A stretch of 64,000 nt of DNA from Bryobacterales bacterium (GCA_963785255.1 CAWAUR010000003.1:443057-507056); one strand, 5' to 3'. Positions 3,319 to 55,796 are shown, numbered from the stretch's first letter. Program-made: numbers and translations. The notes: generated by a model from the sequence alone, not told the origin.

Positions 3319-3520
3319 GTAGGACAGGCCTCCTGGCCTGTCCAGTAGGCGAGCGTTGCTCGCCAAAGGCGAGGGTTGCTCGCCAAAGAGCGGGCCTACG
3401 AGGCCCGCGCAGGCAGAGTGCCTGCCCCACAACGGCGGGCAGAATGTAGAAAGTCGAGAGGACGGGACTGCTGGCCTGTCCATCCGGCGTGGGGCAGGGT
3501 GCGGCAGTGCCTGCCCCACA
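3319..3520. repeat. Composite REP cluster in the divergent glcD/uxaC intergenic region
   Basis: Contains four palindromes in series: GTAGGACAGGCCTCCTGGCCTGTCC, two GGCGAGCGTTGCTCGCC-type hairpins, GCGGGCCTACGAGGCCCGC, and two GCCTGCCCCACA-type arms. Confidence 0.8.
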
Positions 3521-3554: not shown

Positions 3555-4952
3555 ATGCCCTTCATCACCCGCGATTTTCTGCTCAACAATCCGGCCGCCA
3601 GACGGCTGTATCATGACTTTGCCGAGCCGGAGCCCATCCTCGATTACCATTGCCATCTCCCGCCGCAAGATATCGCCGCGAACCGCCGGTTCGCCGATCT
3701 GGCCGCTATCTGGCTGGAGGGCGATCATTATAAGTGGCGCGCCATGCGGGCTAACGGCGTGGATGAGCGTTACTGCACGGGCGATGCGCCGCCATTCGAG
3801 AAGTTCCGCGCGTGGGCGGCCACCGTTCCTCAAACGTTGCGCAATCCTTTGTATCATTGGACGCATCTCGAACTGAAGCGCTACTTCGGCGTGGACGAGT
3901 TGCTGGATGAGGAGAGCGCTCCGCGCATCTGGGAACAGGCCAATGCGCTGCTGGCTACGCCGGACTTGCGCACGCATGGCATACTGGGCCGGTTTCGCGT
4001 GACGCACTTGTGCACCACGGACGATCCCACGGACGACCTAGCGTGCCATCGCGCGATTCAGGCGTCGGCCCTTGAAACCCGCGTATTCCCGGCTTTTCGT
4101 CCGGATAAGGCGCTGATGGTTCACCGGCCCGAACTCTTCAATCCGTGGGTGGAGCAGTTAGCGGCCGCGAGTGACGTAGATATCGGCTCACTCGACGATT
4201 TCACGGACGCATTGCTGCGCAGGCACGACGAGTTTCACGAATTAGGCGCGCGTCTGTCCGATCATGGGCTCAACCAGTGCTACGCGTCATTCTGCGCGGA
4301 TCGCGAAGCCGCCCGAGTGTTCGACCGGGCGCGCGCGGGGCACGCTGCCGGCGCGGACGAACAGGCTGCCTTTGCGTCCTTTATGATGCTCTTCTTTGGG
4401 CATTTGGACGCCGAAAAAGGTTGGACCAAGCAACTCCACTTAGGCGCTTATCGCAGCGCCAATACGCGGCGCCTCGGCGAAGTAGGTCCGGATTCGGGTT
4501 TCGATTCGATCGGCGATTGGCCGCAAGTGGCCTCGTTGGGCGCATATCTGGACCGCTTAGAGATGGAGAACGCGCTGCCGAAGATGATTATCTACAATGT
4601 CAACCCGATTGATAATTATGCGCTCGCGACCATGACCGGTAACTTCCAGGACGGTAAGATCGCCGGCAAGATACAATTCGGCAGCGGCTGGTGGTTTCTG
4701 GATCAAAAGGAAGGCATGGAATGGCAGATCAATGCGTTGTCGAATACGGGTTTGCTGTCGCGGTTCATCGGCATGCTGACCGATTCACGATCGTTCATGT
4801 CTTATCCGCGGCACGAGTATTTCCGGCGGGTGTTATGTAGCTTGATTGGGGAAGATATGGAACGGGGCTTGATTCCGGATAGCAATGAGTTAGTCGGACC
4901 GATGATCCGGAATATCTGTTACGGAAACGCGAAGGAGTATCTGGCGCTGTAG
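3555..4952 (+). CDS. uxaC: Glucuronate (uronate) isomerase
   Basis: 465 aa. MPFITRDFLLNN..LYHDFA...PILDYHCHLPPQDIA and ..KIQFGSGWWFLDQKEGM.. are classic UxaC motifs. Confidence 0.92.
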   Translation: MPFITRDFLLNNPAARRLYHDFAEPEPILDYHCHLPPQDIAANRRFADLAAIWLEGDHYKWRAMRANGVDERYCTGDAPPFEKFRAWAATVPQTLRNPLYHWTHLELKRYFGVDELLDEESAPRIWEQANALLATPDLRTHGILGRFRVTHLCTTDDPTDDLACHRAIQASALETRVFPAFRPDKALMVHRPELFNPWVEQLAAASDVDIGSLDDFTDALLRRHDEFHELGARLSDHGLNQCYASFCADREAARVFDRARAGHAAGADEQAAFASFMMLFFGHLDAEKGWTKQLHLGAYRSANTRRLGEVGPDSGFDSIGDWPQVASLGAYLDRLEMENALPKMIIYNVNPIDNYALATMTGNFQDGKIAGKIQFGSGWWFLDQKEGMEWQINALSNTGLLSRFIGMLTDSRSFMSYPRHEYFRRVLCSLIGEDMERGLIPDSNELVGPMIRNICYGNAKEYLAL

Positions 4953-5017
4953 GACAGGCCTCCCGGCCTGTCCAAGACGAGCGAAACTCGCCGAAGAGCG
5001 GGCCTACGAGGCCCGCG
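4949..5017. repeat. REP cluster; supplies the uxaC TAG stop and forms the 3' exon flank of the intron
   Basis: GTAGGACAGGCCTCCCGGCCTGTCC, then GCGAAACTCGCC, then GCGGGCCTACGAGGCCCGCG. The uxaC stop codon (4950-4952) is the TAG of the GTAG head. Confidence 0.8.
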
Positions 5018-6952
5018 GTCGCGGTAGGGATGCCGGTTGCCCGGCACCCCCCGCACAGATCCGTGCGAGCGCTCCTAACGCACACGGTTCTTACCTTGGA
5101 TGTGCTGCCACGCAAAGCGAACGTCAGGATACGGATGCAGAATTTCGACGTCCGGGATGAGGCACCCGAGTTTCTCCCAAAATTTGTTCCAGGTCCAGCG
5201 GGTTCTTTGACTCCGCCGCCGAAGCTGCCACCACCACATGCGTAGCACTTCGTGCCGGAACGCTTTCAGTCGTTCCTCGTTGCGCGGCACGGCGTGATAT
5301 CGGAAATATCCGCGAACCACCGATTGCAGCCACCCCGTCGTGTCCGGAACCCGCGCATGCAAGCGTTGGCGGAGCTGTTGCCGAATCTTCTTCAGCTTGG
5401 CGGCCATCCGTTTGCCGATCGTCTTCCGCAGCACCATGAAGTACCCCGTCGCGTGATTCTTCCCACAGATGTGAGTGAAACCCAAAAAGTTGAAGGTTTC
5501 CGGCTTCCCTTCCCCACGCTTCGCCCGCCGTTCAGCGGCATAGCGCCCAAATTCGATCAGGCGCGTCTTCTCCGGATGCAATTCCAGCCCGAACTTCCGC
5601 ACGCGTTCCCGCAATTGCGCCAGAAACTTTTCGGCCTCTTCCCGGTCCTGGAATCCGAACACCACGTCGTCCGCGTACCGCACCGCGATCATGTCGCCGT
5701 GCGCCACCTTCTTCCGCCATGCCTGCACCCACAGATCGAGCACGTAATGCAGGTAGAGATTGGCTAGCAACGGCGAAATCACCGCCCCTTGTGGGGTCCC
5801 TTCCTTCGTCTCGTACCACTGTCCGTCCTCCATCACGCCCGCCTTCAACCATTTCAGGATCAAGCGGACGAGCCGTTCATCTCCTATCCGATGCCGTACG
5901 AACTTTTCCATCTGAGCGTGTTCGACTTTGTCGAAAAACGACCGGATGTCTAAGTCCAGAACGTAGTTCACCTTCTTGCTGGTGATCCCGACGTAGAGCG
6001 CGTCTAGTGCGTCGTGCTGCTTGCGCCCCGGCCGGAACCCGTACGAAATGCCCAGAAAGTCCTCTTCCCAGATCGGATTGAGAACCGCGACCACCGCTGC
6101 CTGGGCGATTTTGTCTTCCAGGGCGGCGATGCCCAATGGCCGTTTCCGCCCATCGGCTTTGTCGATCCAGACTCTCCGCGACGGTTGCGCGCGATAGGCC
6201 CCGCGATGGATGCGTCCATGGAGGTCGGCGAGCCGCTCCTCCAGTTCGTCCCCGTAGGCTTGCCACGTCACCCCGTCCACTCCCGCCGCCGCTTGCCTTT
6301 GCAGGTCGTAGTAGCTGCTGCGGAGCAGGTCGATAGTGACGTGATGCAGCAGGGCGGTGAACCGCAACTGCTTGTCCTTCTGCGCTGCTTGACGTACACG
6401 GTCCAGCCCGCTTGGCCCGCTTTCCCGGCCTTGCATCCGGTACGGGTTAGGCTCTTCCGCATTCTCCTCGGTCAGCGGCCTTCCCTCCGCGATCTCCTTC
6501 GGCCCTCCCTGGCCTGCGTTCGACCGCTTCGTCGGTACTACGCCGCTGTGCGACTCCCCGCCGCCGTGCATCTGGGTCTTATCGCTCATCGCTTTCTCCC
6601 AGCGTTCCGCCCTCTACCGGCGGCGGAAAGCCACGGGGTCTCTCGGTTCTCGCGCGTGAAGTTTCTATGCGTGCGTGGGGTCTACGACTCCGCAGGGCCG
6701 CAACGTGCTCGCGCTGTTTACGCACGCTGCCGTGTTGCCTTCCGGTTAGCCTGACACCGTCGGCGCCCATGATTTTGGCAATTTCGGAGCTCATCAACTT
6801 CAGGGATACCCAGCCCACATATGCCCCAGGCCAACGCTTCAAGTGCGTCGTTGCCGCCGCCCTCACATGGCTCGGGGTCAGGATGGTTCGCTACTCCTTT
6901 CCTGTATGACTCTTTCATTCACTACTTCACGCCGGTTTATCCCGACGCTATC
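5018..6952 (-). mobile_element. Group II intron (about 1.9 kb, endonuclease-less RT/maturase) inserted in a composite REP
   Basis: Contains an RT/maturase ORF. The 3' end has a D5-like hairpin (GAACCGUGUGCG..CGCACGGAUC), a 3-nt linker, then a 14-bp D6-like stem with GCAA loop and a bulged A 8 nt from the ..GAC end. The flanks rejoin to match the intact REP at 49521-49575. The 5' end is not canonical (GAUAG at the junction; nearest GUGAA at 6930). Confidence 0.75.
5075..6589 (-). CDS. Group II intron reverse transcriptase/maturase
   Basis: ..RFTALLHHVT..AAAGVDGVTWQAY.., ISPLLANLYLH, YADDVVFGF (RT5) and FNFLGFTH (thumb/X). No HNH/En domain. The start is uncertain; an internal Met (MQGRESG) is possible. 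Confidence 0.9.
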   Translation of the reverse strand: MSDKTQMHGGGESHSGVVPTKRSNAGQGGPKEIAEGRPLTEENAEEPNPYRMQGRESGPSGLDRVRQAAQKDKQLRFTALLHHVTIDLLRSSYYDLQRQAAAGVDGVTWQAYGDELEERLADLHGRIHRGAYRAQPSRRVWIDKADGRKRPLGIAALEDKIAQAAVVAVLNPIWEEDFLGISYGFRPGRKQHDALDALYVGITSKKVNYVLDLDIRSFFDKVEHAQMEKFVRHRIGDERLVRLILKWLKAGVMEDGQWYETKEGTPQGAVISPLLANLYLHYVLDLWVQAWRKKVAHGDMIAVRYADDVVFGFQDREEAEKFLAQLRERVRKFGLELHPEKTRLIEFGRYAAERRAKRGEGKPETFNFLGFTHICGKNHATGYFMVLRKTIGKRMAAKLKKIRQQLRQRLHARVPDTTGWLQSVVRGYFRYHAVPRNEERLKAFRHEVLRMWWWQLRRRSQRTRWTWNKFWEKLGCLIPDVEILHPYPDVRFAWQHIQGKNRVR

Positions 6953-6975
6953 CAGGCTACGAGCCTGCCCCACAA

Positions 6976-8202
6976 TCAGTCGCGTCCTACAAGCCAGTGA
7001 ATGAAGGCAAAAGCCACCAGATAGACCGATCCCGCGATCACAAACAACGGCGCATACGCGCCATGCGACCACTCCAGCCAATAGCCGACCATGGGCGCGA
7101 TCAGCATGCCGCCCGTGGCGCCGGCGAGTCCACCCAATCCCACGACCGAACCCACTGCGTTGCGCGGAAATAAGTCGGAAGCCAGCGTATATAGGTTCGC
7201 GGAGAAGCCCTGATGCGCGGCGGTGGCCACTCCGACCAAAACCACGGCCAGCCACATATTGCCGCGCGACGTCCCCACGAAGACCACCGATGTAACAGCC
7301 ACGGCGCAGATAAACATGGCGGTTTCGCGGGCGCGATTGGGCCGCCAGCCGCGCTTCAAAAGGGCCGACGGAATCCAGCCGCCGCCGATCGATCCGATGG
7401 TGGAGAACTGATACACGACGACGATGGGAAGGCCCAAGTGAGATAAGTCCAGTCCATAGACGCCGTGCAGAAATTTCGGCAGCCAGAAAAGATAGAACCA
7501 CCACGCCGGATCGGTGAGGAACTTTCCGATGATAAAAGCCCACGCCGCGCGGCTTCTGAGTAACGCGGCTAGCGGAGGAGCCGGTTCCGACACGGGCGAG
7601 GGCGCCTGCGCCTGGCGCGCTCCGCGCATGAACCAGATCCAAAGCGCCACCCACGCCACGCCGCATCCGCCAGTTGCGATAAATGCCGCGCGCCATCCGT
7701 AATTGAGCGCGATGAAAGGAACGGTTAACGGCGCAGCGATAGCGCCGATATTCGCGCCGCTGTTGAAGATGCCGGTGGCCAACGCGCGTTCGCGTTGCGG
7801 GAACCAATCGGCCACCGTGCGAATGGCCGCGGGAAAGTTCGCCGATTCGCTTAGACCGAGGGCGAATCGCGCTACTCCGAAGCCCAAGGCGGAGCGTGCC
7901 AACGCGTGTGCCATGGCGGCGGCGCTCCACATGGCGACGGCCACGGCGTAGCCCAGGCGAGTGCCGGCCCAGTCGATCAGCCGGCCGGCGATGGGCATCA
8001 TCAACGCGTAGGCCAGTTGGAATGCGAAAACAATCCAGCCGTAATCCGACTCCCGCCAGCCGAATTCCTTTTCGAGTACCGGCGACAATAACCCGAGCAC
8101 CTGGCGATCGACGTAGTTGATGGTGGTCGCGAAAAACAGGAGCCCGCACACATACCAGCGGAGGCGGGGCGCGGATTGCCGGACGGCGCCTGCGATTTCC
8201 AT
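6976..8202 (-). CDS. MFS transporter, ACS family (hexuronate transporter-like)
   Basis: RWYVCGLLFFATTINYVDRQVLGLLSPVLEKEFGW..YGWIVFAFQLAYA resembles ExuT-type MFS proteins, and uxaC is a neighbour. The ORF extends to 8253; Met-18 was chosen to avoid overlapping the upstream gene. Confidence 0.75.
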   Translation of the reverse strand: MEIAGAVRQSAPRLRWYVCGLLFFATTINYVDRQVLGLLSPVLEKEFGWRESDYGWIVFAFQLAYALMMPIAGRLIDWAGTRLGYAVAVAMWSAAAMAHALARSALGFGVARFALGLSESANFPAAIRTVADWFPQRERALATGIFNSGANIGAIAAPLTVPFIALNYGWRAAFIATGGCGVAWVALWIWFMRGARQAQAPSPVSEPAPPLAALLRSRAAWAFIIGKFLTDPAWWFYLFWLPKFLHGVYGLDLSHLGLPIVVVYQFSTIGSIGGGWIPSALLKRGWRPNRARETAMFICAVAVTSVVFVGTSRGNMWLAVVLVGVATAAHQGFSANLYTLASDLFPRNAVGSVVGLGGLAGATGGMLIAPMVGYWLEWSHGAYAPLFVIAGSVYLVAFAFIHWLVGRD

Positions 8203-8224: not shown

Positions 8225-9088
8225 CTATCCGCGGCGGTTCTGCCACCAGGCATTGAGCAGGGTTGCGGAGAGAATCAGCACACCGCCCGCAATCGAGCCG
8301 GCGGCCGGCCGTTCGCCTTCCACCAGCCAGACCCACACCGGGTTCAACGCCGGTTCCAGAAGCAGTACGGTAGTGGCTTCGAACGCGGGCACGTGCCGGA
8401 TGGCGCGGGTCACGAATAAGTAAGCCAGTCCGATCTGAAAAACTCCCAGATAGAGGAGCACCGCCGTGTTGAGCCAGCCTATGTGTGGAGGAGGCAACGC
8501 TTTTGGCAGAGTTACTAAGCAGGCTAAAAGATTGCCTAAGACGACCGTGGCGGTGGCGGCATTGCCCGCGCCCTCGCGCCGGCCGAGCCAGCGCAAGCCC
8601 GAAACTGTGAGCGCCCAACTGAAGCCTGAAGCGGCGCCCAGCAGATTACCCGCGCGCGGATCGGGCGCCGTGGCTACGGCGGGTTGCGCCGAGCCGAAAC
8701 ATAGGATCATGCCTCCGGCCACGGCGCACAGAAAGAGCAAGTCGGAGCGGCTGAGTGGCTCTTTCAACAACAGCGGACCGATCAACAATAAGTACAGCGG
8801 CGCGCTGGATTGCAAGTAAATGGCGTTCGCCGAAGTGGTCAGTTTGGTGGCCAGCGTGAAGAAAACCAGCGTGGCGGCATAGGCGGCAGCTACCGGCAGC
8901 AGAGTCCAGCGCCAATGCCGCCGCCCATCGGGGACGAAGACGGCCAGCGCGAGCGCCGCGATGCCCGAACGGAAGCTGGCGATCTGCCAGGGAGTCATCG
9001 AGATGGCTTTGATGGCTGCGCCGCCGGTGGAAAATAAGACAGCCGCGGCCATCAACAGCAGCCAGTTTGTTGCGCGCGAGCGAGGCAC
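8225..9088 (-). CDS. DMT/EamA family transporter
   Basis: 287 aa with about 10 hydrophobic helices and two EamA-like halves. Composition is typical of the family. Confidence 0.7.
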   Translation of the reverse strand: MPRSRATNWLLLMAAAVLFSTGGAAIKAISMTPWQIASFRSGIAALALAVFVPDGRRHWRWTLLPVAAAYAATLVFFTLATKLTTSANAIYLQSSAPLYLLLIGPLLLKEPLSRSDLLFLCAVAGGMILCFGSAQPAVATAPDPRAGNLLGAASGFSWALTVSGLRWLGRREGAGNAATATVVLGNLLACLVTLPKALPPPHIGWLNTAVLLYLGVFQIGLAYLFVTRAIRHVPAFEATTVLLLEPALNPVWVWLVEGERPAAGSIAGGVLILSATLLNAWWQNRRG

Positions 9089-36861: not shown

Positions 36862-36941
36862 ACCCATCTGTCACCAGGATCACACGGCGCGTTGCGGCCG
36901 CGCTATAATCCACACTTACGAGCACTACCAACGTCAGTATC

Positions 36942-38345
36942 GTGCAGGCCGAGTTGACGGCTCTGCTGGCGGCACAGCGCACGGCGTTTGCGCACCAGCC
37001 GCCCGATGCATCACAACGAATCGCCAAGCTGCGCGCGCTTTCGAGGGCGCTGCGCACCCGGCGCGAAGCGTTCGTCCAGGCGATCTCCGAGGATTTCGGC
37101 GGACGGGCGCGCCAGGAGACGCTGCTGCTCGAAGTCTTCCCGCTGGTGGATACCATCCACCACGCGGTAGGTCATCTGCGGCAATGGATGCGGCCGCGTC
37201 CGGCAGCGGCGGGCTGGCAATTCATGCCGGGGCGCGCGCGCGTTGTCTATCAACCGCTGGGCGTGGTAGGCATCATCGGCGCGTGGAACTATCCGCTGCT
37301 GCTAAGCCTCTCGCCGCTGGTGAGCGCGCTGGCGGCGGGCAATCACGCGATGCTGAAACCCTCGGAACTCGCGCCGCGAACCGCCGATCTGCTGGCGCGT
37401 CTGATCGCGGATCTGTTCCCGCCAGACTATGTGTCGGTGGTCACGGGCGGCCCGGAAACCGCCGCGGCATTCGCGGCTCTGCCTTTCGATCATCTGCTGT
37501 TCACCGGCTCGACGCGCGTGGGCAAGCTGGTGATGCGCTCGGCCAGCGAGCATCTGACGCCGGTCACACTGGAACTCGGCGGCAAGTCGCCCGCCTTGGT
37601 GCATCCCGATTTTCCCGCGCGCACGGCCGCCCAACGCATCATGGCGGGCAAGTTATATAACGCCGGACAAACCTGTATCGCGCCGGATTACGTGCTGGTG
37701 GAAGCGGGCGCGCGCGCGGAATTCGTGCGCCTGGCAACGGACGCCGCCACGGCGATGTATCCGCGGCTGGTGGATAATCCGGATTACACGCGCATCGTAG
37801 ATCGCGATCACTACGACCGGCTGCGCGGCCTGGTCGGCGACGCCGTGCAGAAAGGCGCGGAGTTGCTGGAGGTAAATCCGGCGCGCGAATCGGCGAATGA
37901 GCAGAACCGCGTTTTTGCGCCGGCCATCTTGTGGAACGTGAACGATCGGATGGCCGTGATGCAGGAGGAGATCTTCGGTCCGGTGTTGCCGGTGGTCACT
38001 TACCGGTCGCTCGATGAAGCGATTGAGTATGTAAACGCCCGGCCGCGGCCGCTGGCGTTGTATTACTTCGACAATAACTCGAAGCGCGTGGAGTCCGTTC
38101 TGGCGCACACCACTTCGGGCGGAGTTACGGTGAACGATACGATCCTGCATATTGCGCAGAACGATTTGCCTTTCGGCGGGGTGGGACCAAGCGGCATGGG
38201 ATCGTATCACGGGTTCGATGGCTTCCTGACGTTCTCGAAGAAGAAAGGTGTTTTCCTGCAGAGCCGTTTCACCACGCTCGGGTTGCTGCGTCCGCCATAC
38301 GGGGAGTTGGCGCGGCGGGTGACCGACTTCCTCATTGGCAAATGA
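36942..38345 (+). CDS. NAD(P)-dependent aldehyde dehydrogenase (ALDH3 / coniferyl-aldehyde DH-like)
   Basis: 467 aa. ..GAWNYPLLLSL.P...ALAAGN....KPSE..., LELGGKSP, ..AGQTCIAPDY.., EEIFGPVLPV. GTG start. Confidence 0.85.
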   Translation: MQAELTALLAAQRTAFAHQPPDASQRIAKLRALSRALRTRREAFVQAISEDFGGRARQETLLLEVFPLVDTIHHAVGHLRQWMRPRPAAAGWQFMPGRARVVYQPLGVVGIIGAWNYPLLLSLSPLVSALAAGNHAMLKPSELAPRTADLLARLIADLFPPDYVSVVTGGPETAAAFAALPFDHLLFTGSTRVGKLVMRSASEHLTPVTLELGGKSPALVHPDFPARTAAQRIMAGKLYNAGQTCIAPDYVLVEAGARAEFVRLATDAATAMYPRLVDNPDYTRIVDRDHYDRLRGLVGDAVQKGAELLEVNPARESANEQNRVFAPAILWNVNDRMAVMQEEIFGPVLPVVTYRSLDEAIEYVNARPRPLALYYFDNNSKRVESVLAHTTSGGVTVNDTILHIAQNDLPFGGVGPSGMGSYHGFDGFLTFSKKKGVFLQSRFTTLGLLRPPYGELARRVTDFLIGK

Positions 38346-38400
38346 GCACGGCGAGAGTCAAAACCCCGGCCCCTAGCCCCCCAGCGGGTGGAACCCGCTC

Positions 38401-40128
38401 ATGACGCGCCGCGAGATCCTCGCCCTCATGCCAGCCGGCGCATTCGCCCAAATGGCCAGCCGCGGCGTGAAGCCAATGCCGCGCGGCAAGCCTTCCGGAC
38501 TGCCGTTTCACGCGCACTTCACCGACGTAGCGGCACAGGCGGGTCTGCGCGATCCGGTGATCTACGGCAGTCCCGACCGCAACCTGTACATCATCGAGCC
38601 GATGGGTAGCGGCATCGCCTTTTTCGACTACGATAACGACGGCTGGCTGGATATACTCGTGCTCAGCGGGTCGCGTCTGGAAGGTTCGCCCGCTGGAGCT
38701 ACTAACCGGCTATATAAGAACAATCGCGACGGCACTTTTAGCGATGTCACTTCGCAAGCCGGCCTCACGCGCACGGGGTGGGCTTACGGAGTCACTATCG
38801 GGGATTATAATAACGACGGTTTCGAAGATATCTTCATCACTTACTGGGGCCATAATGTTCTCTATCGCAATAATGGGAACGGCACATTCACGGATGTGAC
38901 TAAGGAGGCCGGGTTACTCGCGCCGTCCGTGCGTTGGGGCACCGGCTGTACCTTCGTGGATTACGATCGGGACGGCCATCTGGACCTGTACATATCCAAC
39001 TATTTAAAGTTCGATTTCAAGACCGTGCCGCCGGCCGGCAAGCTGGCGAGTTGCAACTGGAAAGGCATCCCGGTGAACTGTGGGCCGCGCGGTTTGCCGC
39101 CGGAGACGCAACTGCTGTATCACAACAACGGCGATGGCACATTCCGCGATGTGTCGGTTTCGTCGGGCATCGCCGCGCCGAAGGGAAGTTATGCGCTGAC
39201 GGCGGTGGCGGCGGATTTCGATAACGATGGATGGCCGGATATCTATGTAGCTTGCGATTCCACTCCCAGCCTGCTGTTCCGGAATAAGCATGACGGCACG
39301 TTTGACGAAGAGGGCCTGGAGCGCGGCGTGGCGCTGAACGAAGACGGACTGGAACAGGCCGGCATGGGATTGGGCATCGGCGATTACGATTGCGACGGCT
39401 ATCTGGATGTATTCAAGACACACTTCACGGAAGATACTCCCGCGCTTTACCACAACGACGGCAAGGGTAACTTCACCGATATGACTCTGCGCGCGGGACT
39501 GGGCGTGGAGACGCGCTTCATCAGTTGGGGCGCTGGCATTGTGGATCTGGATAACGACGGCTGGCCCGATCTGTTTTGGGTGACGGGCAGCGTGTATCCG
39601 GAGGTGGAGAAGCAGTATCCGCAGTTTCCGCATCGCACGCCGCGAGTGATCTTCCGCAACTTAGGCGGCGGTAAGTTCGAAGAGTTGATCGGCGAGGGCG
39701 GACCGGGGATCGAGGCGCTCGACGCCAGCCGCGGCGTAGCGTTCGGCGATTTCGATAACGATGGAGATATCGATATCCTGATCATGAACCAGAACGAACC
39801 GCCGTCGCTGCTGCGCAACGATGTAAGCGGCAATCACCATTGGTTGAAGGTGAAGTTAGTGGGGACGAAATCGAACCGCAGCGCGCTTGGGGCGACGGTG
39901 ATTGCGAGTTATAGTGGCAGGAAGCAGGCGCAGGCGGTGCTGGCGCAATCGTCTTACTTATCGGTGAGCGACCGGCGCTTGCACTTCGGCTTGGGCGCGG
40001 CGGAGTCAGCCGATCTGGAGATTCATTGGCCGAACGGCGCGCGGGAGACCATCGCGAAGGTGGCGGCGGACCAACTGGTGACGGTGCAGGAGGGCGTGGG
40101 GGTGGTGAAGCGGGAGCGATGGAAATAG
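38401..40128 (+). CDS. CRTAC1-family protein (FG-GAP/VCBS repeats plus ASPIC/UnbV domain)
   Basis: Repeated ..FDYDNDGWLDI.. / ..DFDNDGWPDIY.. / ..DLDNDGWPDLF.. units. The C-terminus ..NRSALGATVIA......Q......SYLS.SD.RLHFGLG......+EI.WPNG is the UnbV_ASPIC pattern. Confidence 0.8.
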   Translation: MTRREILALMPAGAFAQMASRGVKPMPRGKPSGLPFHAHFTDVAAQAGLRDPVIYGSPDRNLYIIEPMGSGIAFFDYDNDGWLDILVLSGSRLEGSPAGATNRLYKNNRDGTFSDVTSQAGLTRTGWAYGVTIGDYNNDGFEDIFITYWGHNVLYRNNGNGTFTDVTKEAGLLAPSVRWGTGCTFVDYDRDGHLDLYISNYLKFDFKTVPPAGKLASCNWKGIPVNCGPRGLPPETQLLYHNNGDGTFRDVSVSSGIAAPKGSYALTAVAADFDNDGWPDIYVACDSTPSLLFRNKHDGTFDEEGLERGVALNEDGLEQAGMGLGIGDYDCDGYLDVFKTHFTEDTPALYHNDGKGNFTDMTLRAGLGVETRFISWGAGIVDLDNDGWPDLFWVTGSVYPEVEKQYPQFPHRTPRVIFRNLGGGKFEELIGEGGPGIEALDASRGVAFGDFDNDGDIDILIMNQNEPPSLLRNDVSGNHHWLKVKLVGTKSNRSALGATVIASYSGRKQAQAVLAQSSYLSVSDRRLHFGLGAAESADLEIHWPNGARETIAKVAADQLVTVQEGVGVVKRERWK

Positions 40129-40333
40129 TGCCGACGGTGAACCACTGGAGTACCCTGGTTTGCGTTGGCCGCCATTCTGCTCAAAGTGTGTTGCGAAACC
40201 CGCGCTCGCGACTTACGCGTCGAAACGCTTACATAATCGACCGTAAACATGTCCAGCCGAAGAATCTGGTGTATCCTCTTGGAGATGGTAATCGCGGCCG
40301 AGGTTGAACGGCCGCGCCAGATCGGCGCCTTGG

Positions 40334-40918
40334 ATGCTTGCAGAGCTGACGGCTCTTCACCTACACCGGACCATGTCTTCTGGTCGGAACAAGCCAGCAA
40401 TCTTCGGATGTGTTGATCGCCAAGGTGGTTACGCGGGAGATTACGTCGTGAAGCTCTCCGGTGCGATGGAAACGAGGAAGCGCGGTCCCGCAAGCGAGCT
40501 AATCGTTTCATACCTCGCGCGACATTTCGGCATTTTGAGACCGGACCCGGCTGCCGTGCGGCTGCATCCGGACCTGGTGCAATGGCTCATCGCGCAGCGC
40601 AAAGATCTCGCAGATGTTGTGAGCCGCAGTACGGGCTTGAACTTGGGCACGAGACTCCTCACCGATGTGGCAATCTGGCCAGTCGGCCGCGCCCTGCCGG
40701 AGGCCATGATCACCGCTGCTGCCCGATCTTTGCCCTTGACGCGCTTATCGAAAACGACGACCGCCGCCGTGATAACCCGAACGTCCTCGCGCGCGGCGAT
40801 GAGCTCTTCGTCATTGATCACGAGGCGGCGTTCGCGTTCCTCTATTTAATAACTCCTTGGTCGCGGGCATGGAGCATTCGAAATCGCTCCTCTCTCGAAC
40901 AGCACGTATTCTATTTTC
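40334..40918 (+). pseudogene. HipA-like kinase gene, 5' part (frameshifted near 40715 and interrupted by the IS element)
   Basis: ..GDYVVKLSGAMETRKRGPASELIVSYLARHFGI.. in the frame of ORF 40304, then ..IFALDALIENDDRRRDNPNVLARGDELFVIDHEAAFAF.. in the frame of ORF 40582. Homology stops at the CTATTTTC duplication. Confidence 0.6.
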
Positions 40919-41138
40919 GCCTCGTCGGAGAAATATGTGGGTTACCGATACGCTCCAATGGGCGTCGGAAGCTCGGCGCGCGCAGCCCGCGAACCCGATG
41001 TGGGATGGCGCGGCTTCAGCTTTTCCTGTTCGTAGCCAGTTGCCTTTCGAACTAGTTTGCCCTCTCCGGTAAACGCTACGCCGTTGATCGTGAGTTTAGG
41101 TGGATCGCCGGGCAACGCAGCGGGCGCTCAGCCTCCCA

Positions 41139-41185
41139 TTGCATGCCGTCACCCATGTTGTATACTGAACCGTATGGCTCAGTAT
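41139..41185 (+). promoter_or_regulatory. Candidate promoter plus inverted-repeat operator for the arsR-family operon (near-leaderless)
   Basis: TTGCAT (41139-41144), 16-nt spacer, TATACT (41161-41166), ATG 7 nt later. ATACTGA-N10-TCAGTAT (41162-41185) spans the -10 box and the start codon. Confidence 0.45.
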
Positions 41186-41539
41186 GGCCAAGCCCACTTC
41201 GATGCCTCGTTCGGCGGGCTCTCGGACGCCACCCGACGCGGCGTTCTGGAGCAACTCGGGCGTGCGGACGCTTCGATCACAGCCCTTGCCGAGAGGTTCC
41301 ACATGACCCTTACGGGCATGAAGAAACATGTAGTCGTCTTAGAGCAAGCGGGGCTCGTCAGCACAGAGAAGATTGGGCGCGTGCGGACCTGCAAGCTCGG
41401 GCTGCGCGGACTGGAAGAAGAGGCGGCATGGATCGAGAGGTATCGCCAGCTCTGGGCCGCGCGCTTCGACGAGTTGGACATTGTTGTCGAGGAATTGAAA
41501 CGGAAGGAGAAAGCAAATGGACGTAAGAAGAGAAAGTGA
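41174..41539 (+). CDS. ArsR/SmtB family transcriptional regulator
   Basis: ..LSDATRRGVLEQLGRADASITALAERFHMTLTGMKKHVVVLEQAGLVSTEKIGRVRTCKL.. is a winged-HTH ArsR pattern. Start taken at MAQYGQ. Confidence 0.8.
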   Translation: MAQYGQAHFDASFGGLSDATRRGVLEQLGRADASITALAERFHMTLTGMKKHVVVLEQAGLVSTEKIGRVRTCKLGLRGLEEEAAWIERYRQLWAARFDELDIVVEELKRKEKANGRKKRK

Positions 41540-42026
41540 GGCCACCCCCACGAAGAACCGCACGGGGGTGGAGCGGAAGTCCGAGCGCGAACTCGTCGTC
41601 ACCCGCACCGTCAGCGCGCCTGCGCGCCTCGTGTTCGAGGCGTGGACCAAGGCAGAACTATTCAGGAGGTGGTGGGTACCAAAATCGTATGGGCTGACCC
41701 TGCTTTCCTGCGAAATGGATGTTCGCGTTGGGGGGCAGTATCGTTTGGTGTTTCGCCACGGAGATTCGACGATGGAGTTCTTCGGCACGTACCTCGAAGT
41801 GACACCGCACTCGCGCCTCGTTTGGACCAACGAGGAAGGTGACAACGGCAAGACCGTCACCACGGTGACCTTCGATGAAAACGCAGGCAAGACGCTGTTG
41901 GTGGTGCACGATCTCTATCCCTCGAAGGAAGCGCTTGACTCCGGATCGACGGGCGCGATGCCCGAGGCGCTCGACCAACTCGACGAGCTTCTCGCCAGCC
42001 TGGGATCAAGTACGGAGACAAAATGA
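41517..42026 (+). CDS. SRPBCC (AHSA1/Aha1-like) domain protein
   Basis: ..[29 protein letters not shown]......L.C.MDVRVGG.YR.VF.....ME..G.YLEV.P..RLV.T... Common partner of ArsR regulators. Confidence 0.75.
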
Positions 42027-42916
42027 CGCAGCCAATCCATCAAACAAACGCTTCCGGGCGGCGTTCAGCAGTGCGGAAGACAGCTTTCCTTTTAATGACG
42101 CTCGTTATGACTGACGTGTCGGCGCATCAGAATCCAACGACGGGCTACGCGCCAGCCAATGGAATCAACATGTACTACGAAGTCCACGGCGGCGGCGAAC
42201 CGGTGGTGTTGCTTCACGGCGCGTTCATGACCATCACCAACAACTGGGCCGGGTGGATCAGCGAACTTTCCAAAACACGGAAAGTCATTGCCGTCGAAAT
42301 GCAAGGTCACGGCCGCACGGCGGACGTCCCACGAGATATCACCTACGAAAACCTCGCCGACGACGTGGCCGCACTGCTCAATTATCTCAAGATCCCGCGA
42401 GCGGACCTTATCGGCTACAGCATGGGCGGAGCCGTGGCGATGCAGTGTGCGATCCGCCATCCGGACAAAGTGCGAAGGGCAGTCATCATGTCGTCCACGT
42501 TCCGCAGCGACGGCATGGTCGGCGGAGCGTTCGAATCTATCCCGAAACTCACGGCGGACGCTTTCAAAGGCTCGCCCATTGAGGCCGAGTACAAGAAGCT
42601 GAGTCCGACTCCGGACGACTTTCCGAACTTCGTCCAGCGAATCGTCGCCACGGCCTCGAAAGGGTACGACTTCGGAGCCGACAAGCTTAAGGCCACCACG
42701 ACGCCCATGTTTTTCATCCACGGCGACGCTGACGGCGTGCGGCTCGCGCACGTCGCGGAGATGTTTCGCCTAAAGGGTGGCGAGATCCACGGCGACATGA
42801 AGCCGCGCTCCGCATCGCGATTGGCCATCTTGCCCGACACCACCCACGTGACACTGATCGAGCGCATACCCATCATCGTCCCAATGGTGAACGACTTTCT
42901 CGACGCCAAGCCGTAG
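42023..42916 (+). CDS. Secreted alpha/beta hydrolase
   Basis: ATGA overlap with the upstream gene. ..[15 protein letters not shown].., nucleophile elbow GYSMGGAVA, and a C-terminal His region (..PDTTHVTL..). Confidence 0.75.
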
Positions 42917-43138
42917 CCGTGCTACGGCTCGCGCCGTTTACCGAACGCGAAATTCGTACCGCAGTCAACACGACCGTCCGGCTGATCGAACCTGCATCAA
43001 CGAAAGTTCCTCCTCCTGCTTCGAGCCGCTTACCTGAAAGCAGTAAAGAACGATCAGTCGCCCAGCGTTTTTCGATCCCGCGGCTCACGGGTCTGGAGCG
43101 GTTTATGGTAGAGATTCGCCGCCGCCCGCTTCCGCGCC

Positions 43139-44146
43139 ATGGAACTGATCACGATTCTAAACCGCTGCCATCGTTTCCGAGGTTTTGTCTACCAGCACGC
43201 CCACTTCAGTGCCGACAAGAAGTGTATCGAAGTGGCCGTGCGACCGCGCACGGGTTCGGCCGCAGTCTGCTCGCGCTGCCATTTGCCGGCGCCCGGTTAC
43301 GACCAACTCTCCGAACGGCGCTTTGAGTTCATTCCCCTGTGGGGGTTTCTCGTCTTCCTTCTGTACACCATGCGGCGCGTCAACTGTCGCCGCTGCGGCA
43401 TTGTGGCTGTCGAAGAAGTTCCCTGGGGCGACGGCAAACGCACACTGACCAAAGCCTACATGCTCTTCTTAGCCCGTTGGGCGCGGAGACTGTCATGGAA
43501 AGAGACGGCGGAGGCCTTTCGCACCTCCTGGGACAAGGTCTTCGACGCGGTGGAACACGTCGTCACCTTCCAGCTAGAGCACCGGGTGCTAGGCCAAATC
43601 GATGCGATTCGTTTTCACATCGTGGCGAAAATGAACAAGGCACTGGACGAAATCCGAGCGGGAGAATCGCGCCGTATAGCGAGCGAGGGCGGTGTGCCCG
43701 TGCTGAAGAAGTCGCGCTGGCTGCTGCTCAAACGCGAAGAGAATCTGAAGACGGAACAGCGCTTCCGGTTGCGCGATCTGCTCCGTTACAACCTGAAGAC
43801 CGTACGTGCTTAGCTTCTTAAGGAAGCCCTTCAGCAGCTCTGGGATTACAGTTCGCCCGCATGGGCCGGAAAGTTCCTCGATGACTGGTGTCGGCAAGTG
43901 ATGCGCGCGCGCATCGAGCCCATGAAGAACATCGCCCGGTCACTTCGCCATCACCGCGAATTGATCCTCAACTATTTCCGCGCTCAGAAGCTGCTTTCCA
44001 GCGGAGTTGTCGAGGGTCTGAACAACAAGGCTAAAGTCACCATGAGAAAATCCTACGGTTTCCGCACCTTCCGCTGCCTCGAACTTGCGCTCTATCACTC
44101 ACTTGGCAAGTTGCCCGAGCCGGAATCGACCCACGAATTCTTCTGA
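43139..44146 (+). pseudogene. ISL3-family transposase, inactivated (in-frame TAG plus internal deletion)
   Basis: N-terminal zf-ISL3 (..VCSRCH..VNCRRCG..), ..RFHIVAKMNKALDEIR.., C-terminus ..NYFRAQKLLSSGVVEGLNNKAKV..R.SYGFR... TAG at 43811-43813 is in the same frame as ORF 43898. About 336 codons in total, and the DDE core region is largely absent. Confidence 0.75.
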
Positions 44147-44152
44147 CGAACC

Positions 44153-44360
44153 CTATTTTCAACTCCGCAGGCAGCAGATCGACCTCACCCTCTTCACAGC
44201 CAAGCTTGCGGACCTTGGAGATGCTACGCTGGAAAGCATAATTCAAGATCTCCCAAACGAATGGCGCCACGAAGACCTTGGCCGCGTCTCTGCTCATCTT
44301 CGTAATCTTCGCGACCACGCTTCCGAGTTCGAAAGACAGGTTCTGGAGAGACTAGCATGA
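44153..44360 (+). pseudogene. HipA-like kinase gene, 3' part
   Basis: YFQLRRQQIDLTLFTAKLADLGDATLESIIQDLPNEWRHEDL..ERLA*. It is in phase with the 5' part across the target duplication. Confidence 0.6.
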
Positions 44361-45227
44361 TACCGTATAGCTTCAGTGTGCTTCGCTACATTCACGACGG
44401 CGTGACGGCGGAATTCGTCAATGTGGGCATAGCCGTTTATGCAGGCGATGCGTCCTATCTCAAGGCAAAATGCAGCACTGGATACGGCCGAATCACTCGG
44501 CTGTTCGATCGCATCCGATGGCGATCGCTTTAAGCAGCTCGTCCGGTACATCGAAGAGGAAGTGACGGCTCTCGGCTATAAGCTGCGTCAACACACTCTT
44601 CCTTTTGCCGAACTCGGCACCACCATAGAAGCGCTCCTCAAGGCCGTGCTTCCACCGGATGATAGCGCGATCCAGTTTTCCCCGGCTGGCTATGGCGTAA
44701 CCGCTGACCTGGACACGACCCTTTCAGAGATGTACGAGCGCTACGTGGAGCAGTATGCTGGCGAGCAAGATGTACCGAGCCGGAGCGACGACGAGGTCTG
44801 GCGAGTATTCCGGACTGCTCTGGAGCAGCACCGCGTCCTATCAAAACTCGAGCCTAAGAAAATCACCGCTCCGGACTATGACTATCAATTTCGGGCCGCC
44901 TGGCAGAATAAGATTTGGCACGTATACGAAGCGGTGTCTTTCGATCTTGTGGAGCCAACGTCCTTATTGGAAAAGGCCAATCGTTGGGTTGGGCGTTCGG
45001 CGAGCCTTATCGAGAGTCAGGAGCCTTTCCGCCTGCACATACTGATCGGCATACCTCAGGATGCCCGCCTTCAAACGACCTTCAAAAAAGCGCGGAACAT
45101 CTTGAGAAAGATGGCTGGTGATCCCGAGTTCGTCATGGAAGACGAAGCTGAGTCCTTCGCGGCCGATTTAGCGCACGAAATAGGCATCCACGATGGTGAT
45201 TCCCGGCCCCTCTTCGAACTTTGCTAA
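44357..45227 (+). pseudogene. DUF3037-like protein gene with one frameshift (about 44515-44530)
   Basis: The ATG overlaps the kinase TGA. MIPYSFSVLRYIHDGVTAEFVNVGIAVY.. is the DUF3037-type opening (recalled from memory). This frame stops at 44531-44533 and the sequence continues in the frame of ORF 44439..45227. Confidence 0.5.
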
Positions 45228-45299
45228 TGGTAGTTTCGCCGAGTGTCGTCAGTGATACGCCTCGTCCCACCCATACGCGCAGTATGCTAATTAAGACTC

Positions 45300-48982: not shown

Positions 48983-49145
48983 GACAAGCCTCCTGGCTGT
49001 CCAGGGCGAGCGTTGCTCGCGTGGGGCGAGCGTTGCTCGCGTGGGGCGAGCGTTGCTCGCGTGGGGCGAGCGTTGCTCGCGTGGGGCGAGCGCTGCTCGC
49101 CTAAGAGCGGGCCTACGAGGCCCGCGCAGGCAGGGTGCCTGCCCC
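48979..49145. repeat. REP cluster including five tandem 20-bp hairpin units
   Basis: GTAGGACAAGCCTCCTGGCTGTCC, then five copies of (G)GGGCGAGCGTTGCTCGCGT (49001-49100), then GCGGGCCTACGAGGCCCGC, then GCAGGCAGGGTGCCTGCCCCACA. Confidence 0.85.
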
Positions 49146-49148
49146 ACA

Positions 49149-49520: not shown

Positions 49521-49611
49521 TGTGGGGCAGGCTCGTAGCCTGCGCGGGCCTCGTAGGCCCGCTCTTTTGGCGCGTTGGCGCGCCGTGGACAGGCCGGGAG
49601 GCCTGTCCTAC
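49521..49611. repeat. Composite REP cluster (intact reference copy for the intron target)
   Basis: TGTGGGGCAGGCTCGTAGCCTGCGCGGGCCTCGTAGGCCCGCTCTTTTGGCG ... GGACAGGCCGGGAGGCCTGTCCTAC. Confidence 0.85.
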
Positions 49612-55675: not shown

Positions 55676-55680
55676 TCCGT

Positions 55681-55796
55681 GTGGGGCAGGCACTCTGCCT
55701 GCGCGGGCCTCGTAGGCCCGCTCTTTCGGCGCGCGAAGTGCAGCGCTGCGCCGCAGGCGGCCTGAGAGGCCGCCGCAGGCAGGGTGCCTGCCCCAC
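55681..55796. repeat. Composite REP cluster between convergent pgm and gspK
   Basis: GTGGGGCAGGCACTCTGCCTGCGCGGGCCTCGTAGGCCCGCTCTTTCGGCG ... GCAGGCGGCCTGAGAGGCCGCCGCAGGCAGGGTGCCTGCCCCAC. Confidence 0.85.

Follow-up and report, generated by a model that had tools for sequence, protein, structure and literature searches.

An ISL3-family transporter insertion sequence carrying an arsR operon in a HipA_2 gene of Bryobacterales, and the variable cargo slot of its lineage

Insertion sequences (IS) of the ISL3 family generate 8-bp repeats and prefer AT-rich targets (PMC3469429). ISPpu12, from Pseudomonas putida pWW0, holds passengers unrelated to transposition, including czcD, inside its terminal repeats, and these move with the IS (PMC3735179). 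ISPst2, an ISL3 element of 2,985 bp with 8-bp AT-rich duplications, carries two passengers, one of them an ArsR-family regulator (PMC6305408). Here we analyze an element of this kind in a 64,000-nucleotide (nt) stretch of a Bryobacterales bacterium genome (GCA_963785255.1, CAWAUR010000003.1:443057-507056), referred to here as the window, whose coordinates are used throughout. At 40919-44152 we recognize, with a probability of about 0.93, a 3,234-bp ISL3-family transporter IS that was inserted whole into a HipA_2 kinase gene and that belongs to a lineage with a variable cargo slot, filled in the window by genes for an ArsR-type regulator, an SRPBCC protein and an alpha/beta hydrolase (the arsR operon).

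The element resembles ISPpu12 in its ISL3 transposase, imperfect 24-bp terminal repeats, 8-bp target duplications and passengers inside the repeats. ISPpu12 is about 3.4 kb long, similar in size to the window element. It has one fixed passenger set, whereas about 50 alternative cargos occur in the lineage described here, and the transposase of the window copy is dead. With ISPst2 the element shares the ISL3 type, an ArsR-family passenger and 8-bp AT-rich duplications, but the second passenger of ISPst2 is a permease in place of the SRPBCC protein and hydrolase, its terminal repeats (GGGTATCCGGAATTTCTGGTTGAT) are unrelated, and a variable slot is not described for it. Base ISL3 elements of Acidobacteriota and of Burkholderiales plasmids, such as Paraburkholderia aromaticivorans pBN1, have transposases 68-93% identical to that of the window, the same type of left terminal inverted repeat (IRL), and 8-bp duplications at AT-rich sites. 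They differ in having a divergent open reading frame (ORF) of ~140-145 amino acids (aa) where the window lineage has a 167-nt backbone and cargo. Plasmid ISL3 transposases outside the Paraburkholderia, Polaromonas and Caballeronia group were less than 60% identical to that of the window, in a comparison that did not extend to ISPpu12 itself.

The insertion, its empty site and copies elsewhere

In silico removal of 40919-44160 restores the reading frame of the host gene, and the product matches HipA_2 (PF20613) through the joint. A preliminary description of this DNA had expected excision to regenerate one continuous ORF; the frame is indeed restored at the joint, but a further 1-nt deletion near 40725 means that excision alone would not give a full-length gene. 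With the IS excised and this deletion mended, the resulting 261-aa protein aligned colinearly, and without a gap at the joint, to seven full-length homologues (45-86% identity), and residues H191, F193, Q196 and L197 around the joint were invariant in all of them. The closest homologue, P0001 (86% identity), is encoded on JGI contig Ga0136449_100007288 (locus L008; recovered loci carry L numbers), where the gene order is that of the window: aldehyde dehydrogenase (Aldedh), FG-GAP/UnbV, HipA_2 and DUF3037, the last two intact at 249 and 289 aa. At the site itself L008 has neither the arsR operon nor the repeats, and it contains a single 8-mer, written CTATTATC. Positions 2515-6550 of L008 align to window 36875-40918 and positions 6543-7637 to window 44153-45248, and the 8-nt overlap of these two blocks is the single target copy. 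L008 is a clean empty site, of the kind that the preliminary description had proposed to look for in related genomes. Loss of colinearity at the joint, or relatives with the operon at this position and no repeats or duplication, had been named beforehand as evidence contrary to a passenger-carrying ISL3 insertion in a HipA-like gene; both were looked for and neither was found.

The AT-rich 8-mer CTATTTTC occurs just twice in the window, both strands counted, and the two copies frame the element as first described. Duplications of 8 bp, which had been put forward as an ISL3 hallmark, match those of the sibling copies and the published family description (PMC3469429); here the duplication would stem from a staggered 8-bp cut, as is usual in ISL3 transposition. 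Directly inside lie imperfect 24-bp inverted repeats, a length within the ~15-39 bp typical of ISL3 ends. The 16 of 23 identities between 40919-40941 and the reverse complement of 44130-44152, originally counted by hand, were reproduced computationally and become 17/24 when one base is added. The order of parts is IRL, a 167-nt conserved left region, the cargo slot, an 82-nt leader, the transposase gene and the right terminal inverted repeat (IRR), with both IRL and IRR intact, and the element entered the HipA_2 gene of a HipA_2/DUF3037 (PDC-M66-like) pair as one unit. An alternative left end directly upstream of the transposase gene was rejected (best match 12/24). A degenerate 21-mer search found no further copies of the element ends within the window, no Rfam families were found across 40300-44700, and promoter and terminator scans gave no more than chance-level results.

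An exact 21-mer from the left backbone was used to collect 89 metagenome loci, in about 70 of which the same IRL (GCCTCGTCGGAGAAATCTGTGGGT) abuts unrelated AT-rich flanks with a sharp boundary. The arsR cargo was found in eleven loci, the window's own included, which together with L178 amounts to at least nine sites other than that of the window. At these sites IS and arsR cargo adjoin distinct AT-rich flanks (L020, L038, L055, L058, L064, L077/L080, L089, L092 and L178), and the IRL variant of L077/L080, inserted at a site of its own, is exactly that of the window. Since the same IS with the same cargo recurs at so many positions, IS and cargo move as one unit. The empty site and these repeated joint occurrences are what characterizes a transporter IS, in which passengers inside the repeats travel with the IS, and they bear out the passenger-carrying nature proposed earlier. 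Loci L030, L040/L054, L081 and L100 combine an intact 416-aa transposase, cargo and a perfect 8-bp duplication.

In a genome scan, members of the family were located in metagenome-assembled genomes (MAGs) of Acidobacteriota (Bryobacterales, Solibacteraceae and Terriglobia), with perfect 8-bp duplications at most of the 80 genome loci, in line with the duplication length and AT-rich targets of ISL3. Relatives annotated as ISL3 family transposase were up to 99% identical in Acidobacteriota MAGs and 68-70% identical on Paraburkholderia, Polaromonas and Caballeronia plasmids. The majority of relatives outside the window's sub-lineage, at 79-93% aa identity, belong to a cargo-less base IS of ~1.73 kb with a 470-nt leader, in which the conserved ORF (MKWK...RHDLEHYCRDLNGWPRSWMGLEKDLPPGEQL...KTIQKHVDNMW...) diverges from the transposase gene and ends at the IRL (L119, L113, L168 and others, leader 4529-5000; L195, 2562-2981). 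No Pfam domains were found in this ORF of ~145 aa or in a 57-aa antisense ORF of the left backbone. Plasmid pBN1 has a 139-aa 'hypothetical' gene in the same divergent position, likened to the base-IS ORF by position and without alignment. Other sub-lineages (L102, L110, L127 and L147) have different conserved borders, with variable content again between them.

Two further observations concern the history of individual copies. In one Terriglobia MAG, three base IS copies (L123, L125 and L167) at different sites, each with its own perfect 8-bp target duplication, contain the same nested leader insertion of ~1.6 kb with a 9-nt duplication. As the nested insertion is common to three separately duplicated sites, an IS carrying another element has itself transposed; the resulting 2,100-nt leader had been considered as slot cargo, a reading rejected in favor of the nested insertion. 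L179 (2771-4050) contains a degenerate arsR-cargo element that is cut off at window position 41028 and lies beside a full-length phage-type integrase gene, with the join inside a shared GTTCGTAGCCAG; a tRNA-like 3' half seen there by eye was not called by ARAGORN.

Table 1. Features of the element and its host genes, in window coordinates, and IS-free copies of the cargo operon
Feature	Position	Strand	Remarks
HipA_2 kinase gene, 5' part (PADLOC PDC-M66A-like)	40334-40918	+	1-nt deletion near 40725
Left target-site duplication copy, CTATTTTC	40911-40918	none	single copy in empty site L008
Left terminal inverted repeat (IRL), GCCTCGTCGGAGAAATATGTGGGT	40919-40942	+	
Conserved left backbone, 167 nt, ends ...CCGGTAAACGCTACGCCGTT	40919-41085	+	80-99% identical in 89 metagenome loci, any cargo
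Left arm of split palindrome, GGTAAACGCTACGCCGTT	41068-41085	+	also upstream of operon in IS-free L196
Cargo segment, 1,971 nt	41086-43056	+	P450 gene takes its place in L007
ArsR/SmtB-type regulator, 121 aa	41174-41539	+	HTH_20 E=2e-9; NF033788 E=2.5e-11
SRPBCC/AHSA1-family protein, 169 aa	41517-42026	+	PF08327 E=2e-23
Alpha/beta-fold hydrolase, 297 aa	42023-42916	+	Abhydrolase_1 E=2.5e-20
Conserved right leader, start GTCGCCCAGCGTTTTT = right arm of split palindrome	43057-43138	+	right arm after operon in L194
ISL3-family transposase pseudogene, 335 codons	43139-44146	+	
Junction of 243-bp (81-aa) internal deletion	43608-43609	+	GVDE...SDMW removed
In-frame TAG	43811-43813	+	TAC (Tyr) in relatives
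Right terminal inverted repeat (IRR)	44129-44152	-	includes transposase stop codon
Right target-site duplication copy, CTATTTTC	44153-44160	none	
HipA_2 gene, 3' part	44161-44360	+	
DUF3037 gene (PDC-M66B-like partner)	44357-45227	+	1-nt insertion near 44515
IS-free copy L196/L198, 95% to window cargo	41068-43060		starts at left arm's outer end (18 nt common); ends GTCG
IS-free copy L191, 95% to window cargo	41079-42928		CGCCGTT (7 nt) common with left arm
IS-free copy L180, 91% to window cargo	homology ends at 43060		ends ...GATCAGTCG; GTCG (4 nt) common with arm
IS-free copy L194, 93% to window cargo	through to 43070		whole right arm GTCGCCTAGCGTTTACC, then unrelated DNA

The transposase and the cargo slot

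The transposase frame matched Pfam DDE_Tnp_ISL3 (PF01610) with E=4e-46 over profile positions 83-238 only, that is, its last two thirds, and NCBIfam transpos_ISL3 (NF033550) with 182 bits against a cut-off of 180, the deletion notwithstanding. Zinc-ribbon and helix-turn-helix matches of the N-terminus were weak; overall, the profiles and the ISL3-annotated relatives agree with the ISL3 assignment made originally. The TGA stop codon (44144-44146) falls within the right repeat, as was noticed at the outset and as expected for the family. Intact siblings ~97% identical in DNA encode 416 aa, and relative to them the window lacks exactly 243 nt, a stretch (GVDEIQ...CSDMWEPY...ILD) that probably includes the DDE triad's first two acidic residues and has GAT(Y)G microhomology at its edges. 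An earlier remark that this region was too short for a DDE core is thereby refined to a defined deletion. The in-frame TAG reported at the same time is likewise present, with TAC at this codon in four relatives. Owing to the 81-aa deletion and the TAC>TAG change, the window copy is unable to make active transposase and hence is non-autonomous, the intact catalytic core of an autonomous element being found in the 416-aa siblings. The copy would now be fixed in place, able to move only with an intact 416-aa sibling transposase acting in trans.

Ninety elements, that of the window included, have the left 167 nt and the transposase part in common. At all loci the left backbone ends ...CCGGTAAACGCTACGCCGTY and the right backbone begins GTCGCSCAGCGTTTATCGATCC..., and the sequence in the slot between them sorts into ~50 unrelated clusters. 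Cargos are 0.64-3.3 kb long and consist of one to three closely spaced genes, which may lie on either strand; the arsR operon is the commonest. Junctions are nucleotide-precise on both sides in most of the ~50 cargos. In L007 (JGI contig Ga0179587_10020548), for instance, the left 167 nt are 95% identical to the window, the leader and transposase are 96.7% identical and have the same 243-bp deletion, and between these same backbones lies a cytochrome P450 gene on the opposite strand. Pfam matches in other cargos include a GNAT acetyltransferase, a glyoxalase, two S-adenosylmethionine (SAM) methyltransferases, ankyrin proteins, DUF4440, a Ser/Thr kinase with PD40 (WD40-like) repeat, an NmrA-like protein, a ChaN-like protein, and PadR with a MacB/FtsX permease. 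In one cargo an extracytoplasmic function (ECF) sigma factor is accompanied by an ORF without Pfam match, possibly its anti-sigma factor. A literature search found no description of variable cargo in ISL3 elements of Acidobacteria and, as far as that search shows, a precise, lineage-wide cargo slot is undescribed so far.

The composition of the window's own cargo was confirmed by Pfam and NCBIfam profiles and by coordinates, the three genes overlapping at their ends as first described. The hydrolase has a hydrophobic N-terminal segment and a GYSMGG motif, both read from the translation, and is probably exported. A 10-4-10 palindrome-like sequence, ATACTGAACC GTAT GGCTCAGTAT, was seen by eye over the arsR start codon (41158-41185); L180 and L191 have a perfect version of it, and in the window copy one of the two arms has mutated. 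It is probably an operator, in which case the operon would regulate itself.

With integron cassettes and the pdif (Xer) modules the slot has in common many unrelated cargos of one to three genes, either orientation, a fixed position, short inverted borders, and overlapping cargo functions (GNAT, glyoxalase, methyltransferase). It differs from them in that the lineage has no integrase in or beside the element, each element holds one or few genes, and the platform is itself a transposon. Of what defines an integron, namely a tyrosine-recombinase integrase with attI and attC hairpins, no integrase was found among the ORFs and no internal palindromic sites were found. Each slot junction consists of a conserved arm joined to cargo-specific sequence that resembles the arm weakly; a 28-bp XerC/XerD site on both sides, as in pdif modules, was not seen, the dif site of these organisms not having been identified. 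Joined without cargo, the two arms read TAAACGCTACGCC GT CGCGCAGCGTTTA, a 28-bp near-palindrome (11/13 palindromic). No 13+2+13 palindrome of at least 10/13 was present in 110 kb of cargo or in the window, which ruled out cassette arrays with internal full sites. Neither an attC-like hairpin nor a full 28-bp site was found at cargo ends or within cargos, where arm-like repeats were not enriched. Since arm-like matches in cargos were no more frequent than in shuffled sequence, an inverted arm-like sequence 3' of the hydrolase stop codon is regarded as unproven.

The composition of cargo ends is weakly patterned, position -7 being C in 41/58. Purine-rich cargo ends (AGGGAGGATC) were considered as ribosome-binding sites and rejected, gene starts lying 25-130 nt further in. 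L041, L053 and L096 have the first 42-57 nt after the left junction in common, split at ...GGTCGGGCGT, and have further common blocks (557 nt and 222 nt) after differing sequence, which looks like module shuffling within long cargos. A cassette-array idea based on a 68-nt linker common to L041 and L053 was dropped, the linker being found nowhere else.

Several observations weigh against our reading of the element and its lineage. The 17/24 match of the terminal repeats ties for best in the window (two such among ~128,000 positions) and the best unrelated match to the right end is likewise 17/24, so that the score by itself is at chance level. The pairing is nevertheless non-random, because the repeats lie directly against the unique 8-bp repeat and a degenerate 21-mer made from both ends matched at these two sites only in the window, where 0.02 matches were expected. 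At the slot, cargo ends resemble the arms weakly (4.0 versus 3.35 matches of 13, p=7e-4), the slot was never seen empty in ~100 elements (~190 local loci), and no recombinase is encoded among the element's ORFs. As to the transposase, the 243-bp deletion was seen in one other copy only (L007/L035), which carries a different cargo and lacks a matching duplication; the window transposase DNA is 96.9% identical to that copy, against up to 98.2% to intact ones. The deletion may therefore be recurrent or have spread by recombination. The element may have become defective before or after inserting, either order being compatible with the data.

The alternative to decay in place is that the 243-bp deletion preceded insertion into the HipA_2 gene, with the transposase of an intact sibling mobilizing the element in trans, a sequence of events that we consider possible, if on balance doubtful. 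Deleted copies do persist, as in L007/L035, where the identical deletion lies in an otherwise open 335-aa frame beside different cargo; moreover, both ends of the window copy are intact and its exact IRL variant occurs at another site. Set against this, the window transposase DNA is nearer to intact L081 (98.2/97.4%) than to the deleted copy, short GAT(Y)G repeats on either side of the deletion could allow it to arise more than once, L178 has the same cargo without the deletion, and among the recovered loci there was no second insertion site of a deleted arsR-cargo copy.

Origin and exchange of the cargo

Using close homologues of the hydrolase, we located the same three-gene operon at 90-95% identity in five chromosomal contexts without ISL3 nearby (L180, L191, L194, L196 and L200), with homology ending at or near the arms in those listed in Table 1. 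L001 (~8770-9046) is a strain variant of the window locus in which the element is kept from 41069 rightward, with the same right flank; the break coincides with the outer end of the left arm (GTAAACGC), and to its left lies unrelated DNA ending in a tyrosine-recombinase C-terminal fragment. L039 (~1080-1140, oriented copy) contains an inversion, judged against the left backbone, that takes in the right leader's initial 57 nt and the end of the cargo next to it. Its breakpoints are in GGTAAAC.GCT and in the similar leader motif AGCG.GTTTAT, which suggests that this motif is recombination-prone. The IS-free operon copies and the breaks in L001 and L039 indicate that the arms are natively tied to the arsR operon and that both arm edges are recurrent breakpoints. 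This can be read in two ways: the IS sub-lineage may have been founded with the arsR unit as cargo, its interior being replaced by later cargos, or arm-bounded cassettes may themselves be mobile.

For the exchange itself, the precise joints favor an enzyme over microhomology repair, and in our preferred reading cargo would be exchanged by enzyme-mediated recombination at the arms, carried out by a factor outside the element. The lineage would then be a transposable cassette platform with one docking site (the 28-bp junction sequence), carrying ~50 or more cargos in either orientation that are swapped with chromosomal arm-bearing cassettes by a recombinase or transposase encoded elsewhere. We hold this view tentatively and put it at somewhat short of even odds.

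Cargo diversity could also arise without an enzyme, if the 28-bp palindrome, or a hairpin formed by it, broke or stalled replication and microhomology or template-switch repair copied in nearby chromosomal DNA. The donor-like loci, which have only 4-7 nt in common with the arms (GTCG in L180, CGCCGTT in L191), would suit such a process, as would an element without a recombinase gene and a sample of ~100 elements without an empty slot. Microhomology repair would, however, be expected to scatter the junctions, which fall on the same nucleotide on both sides in most of the ~50 cargos, and the composition pattern common to cargo ends also speaks against it. We think this route unlikely.

We regard as similarly improbable that the passenger is a small mobile cassette with inverted repeats of ~17 bp (GGTAAACGCTACGCCGT ... 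GTCGCCTAGCGTTTACC) that docks in the ISL3 leader and is moved by an outside transposase or recombinase. Such a cassette would account for an operon conserved in five chromosomal contexts, for homology whose start coincides with the outer left-arm edge in L196 (41068) and L001 (41069) and which stops soon past the right arm in L194 (43070), and for the L039 inversion breakpoint in GGTAAAC. Yet a pair of arms outside an IS was not recovered at any single locus, within the IS the arms lack a flanking target duplication, the variable part in the IS lineage begins within the arms and not outside them, and the arm 17-mer is rare in a viral collection (two matches, one a coding coincidence).

Finally, two separate events, in which an ISL3 element of ~1.1 kb (43057-44152) came to lie beside a resident arsR operon with the left repeat and 8-mer there by chance, might be argued from the IS-free operon copies in other genomes and the chance-level score of the terminal repeats, but are refuted by L008, where all 3.2 kb are missing and the 8-mer is present once, and by the lack of any IRL-like sequence upstream of the transposase gene and the joint occurrence of left end, operon and transposase at other sites, and we give them next to no credence.

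The host gene pair and the meaning of the slot

The repaired HipA_2 protein matched PADLOC PDC-M66A over its full length (E=4e-62) and the intact DUF3037 protein of L008 matched PDC-M66B (E=4e-77), so that the host pair resembles the candidate defense system PDC-M66 in both profiles; it differs from it in that neither gene is intact in the window. Three lesions affect the pair, namely the IS insertion, the 1-nt deletion near 40725 and the 1-nt insertion near 44515. Judged by these lesions, HipA_2 and DUF3037 are both pseudogenes and the pair as a whole is in decay. Contigs identical to the window were present in one NCBI assembly and three independent read-set assemblies, and the presence of the HipA_2 frameshift in all four argues that it is not a sequencing error.

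Elsewhere in the window, near-identical stretches of 37-84 nt recur at ~3348-3431, 49004-49148, 49521-49566 and 55680-55733. At least one lies near a MacB/FtsX-type permease gene downstream of the element, and together they probably mark paralogous permease genes.

Taken singly, the window element is a textbook case, an ordinary passenger-carrying ISL3 member, now non-autonomous, that inactivated a candidate phage-defense kinase, and its description is chiefly of use for annotation. The lineage has a wider reach, in that one IS backbone, conserved at 90-99% identity in soil and peat Acidobacteriota, delivers ~50 accessory gene sets from one nucleotide-precise slot. The inverted arm pair (GGTAAACGCTRCGSC ... 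GSCGYAGCGTTTAY) offers a concrete signature for genome-wide searches. If the exchange is enzyme-mediated, transposons would be loaded with genes by a route not described before, one that differs from integrons, pdif modules and composite transposons and that could partly explain why accessory genomes in these abundant soil bacteria are so large and rich in paralogues.

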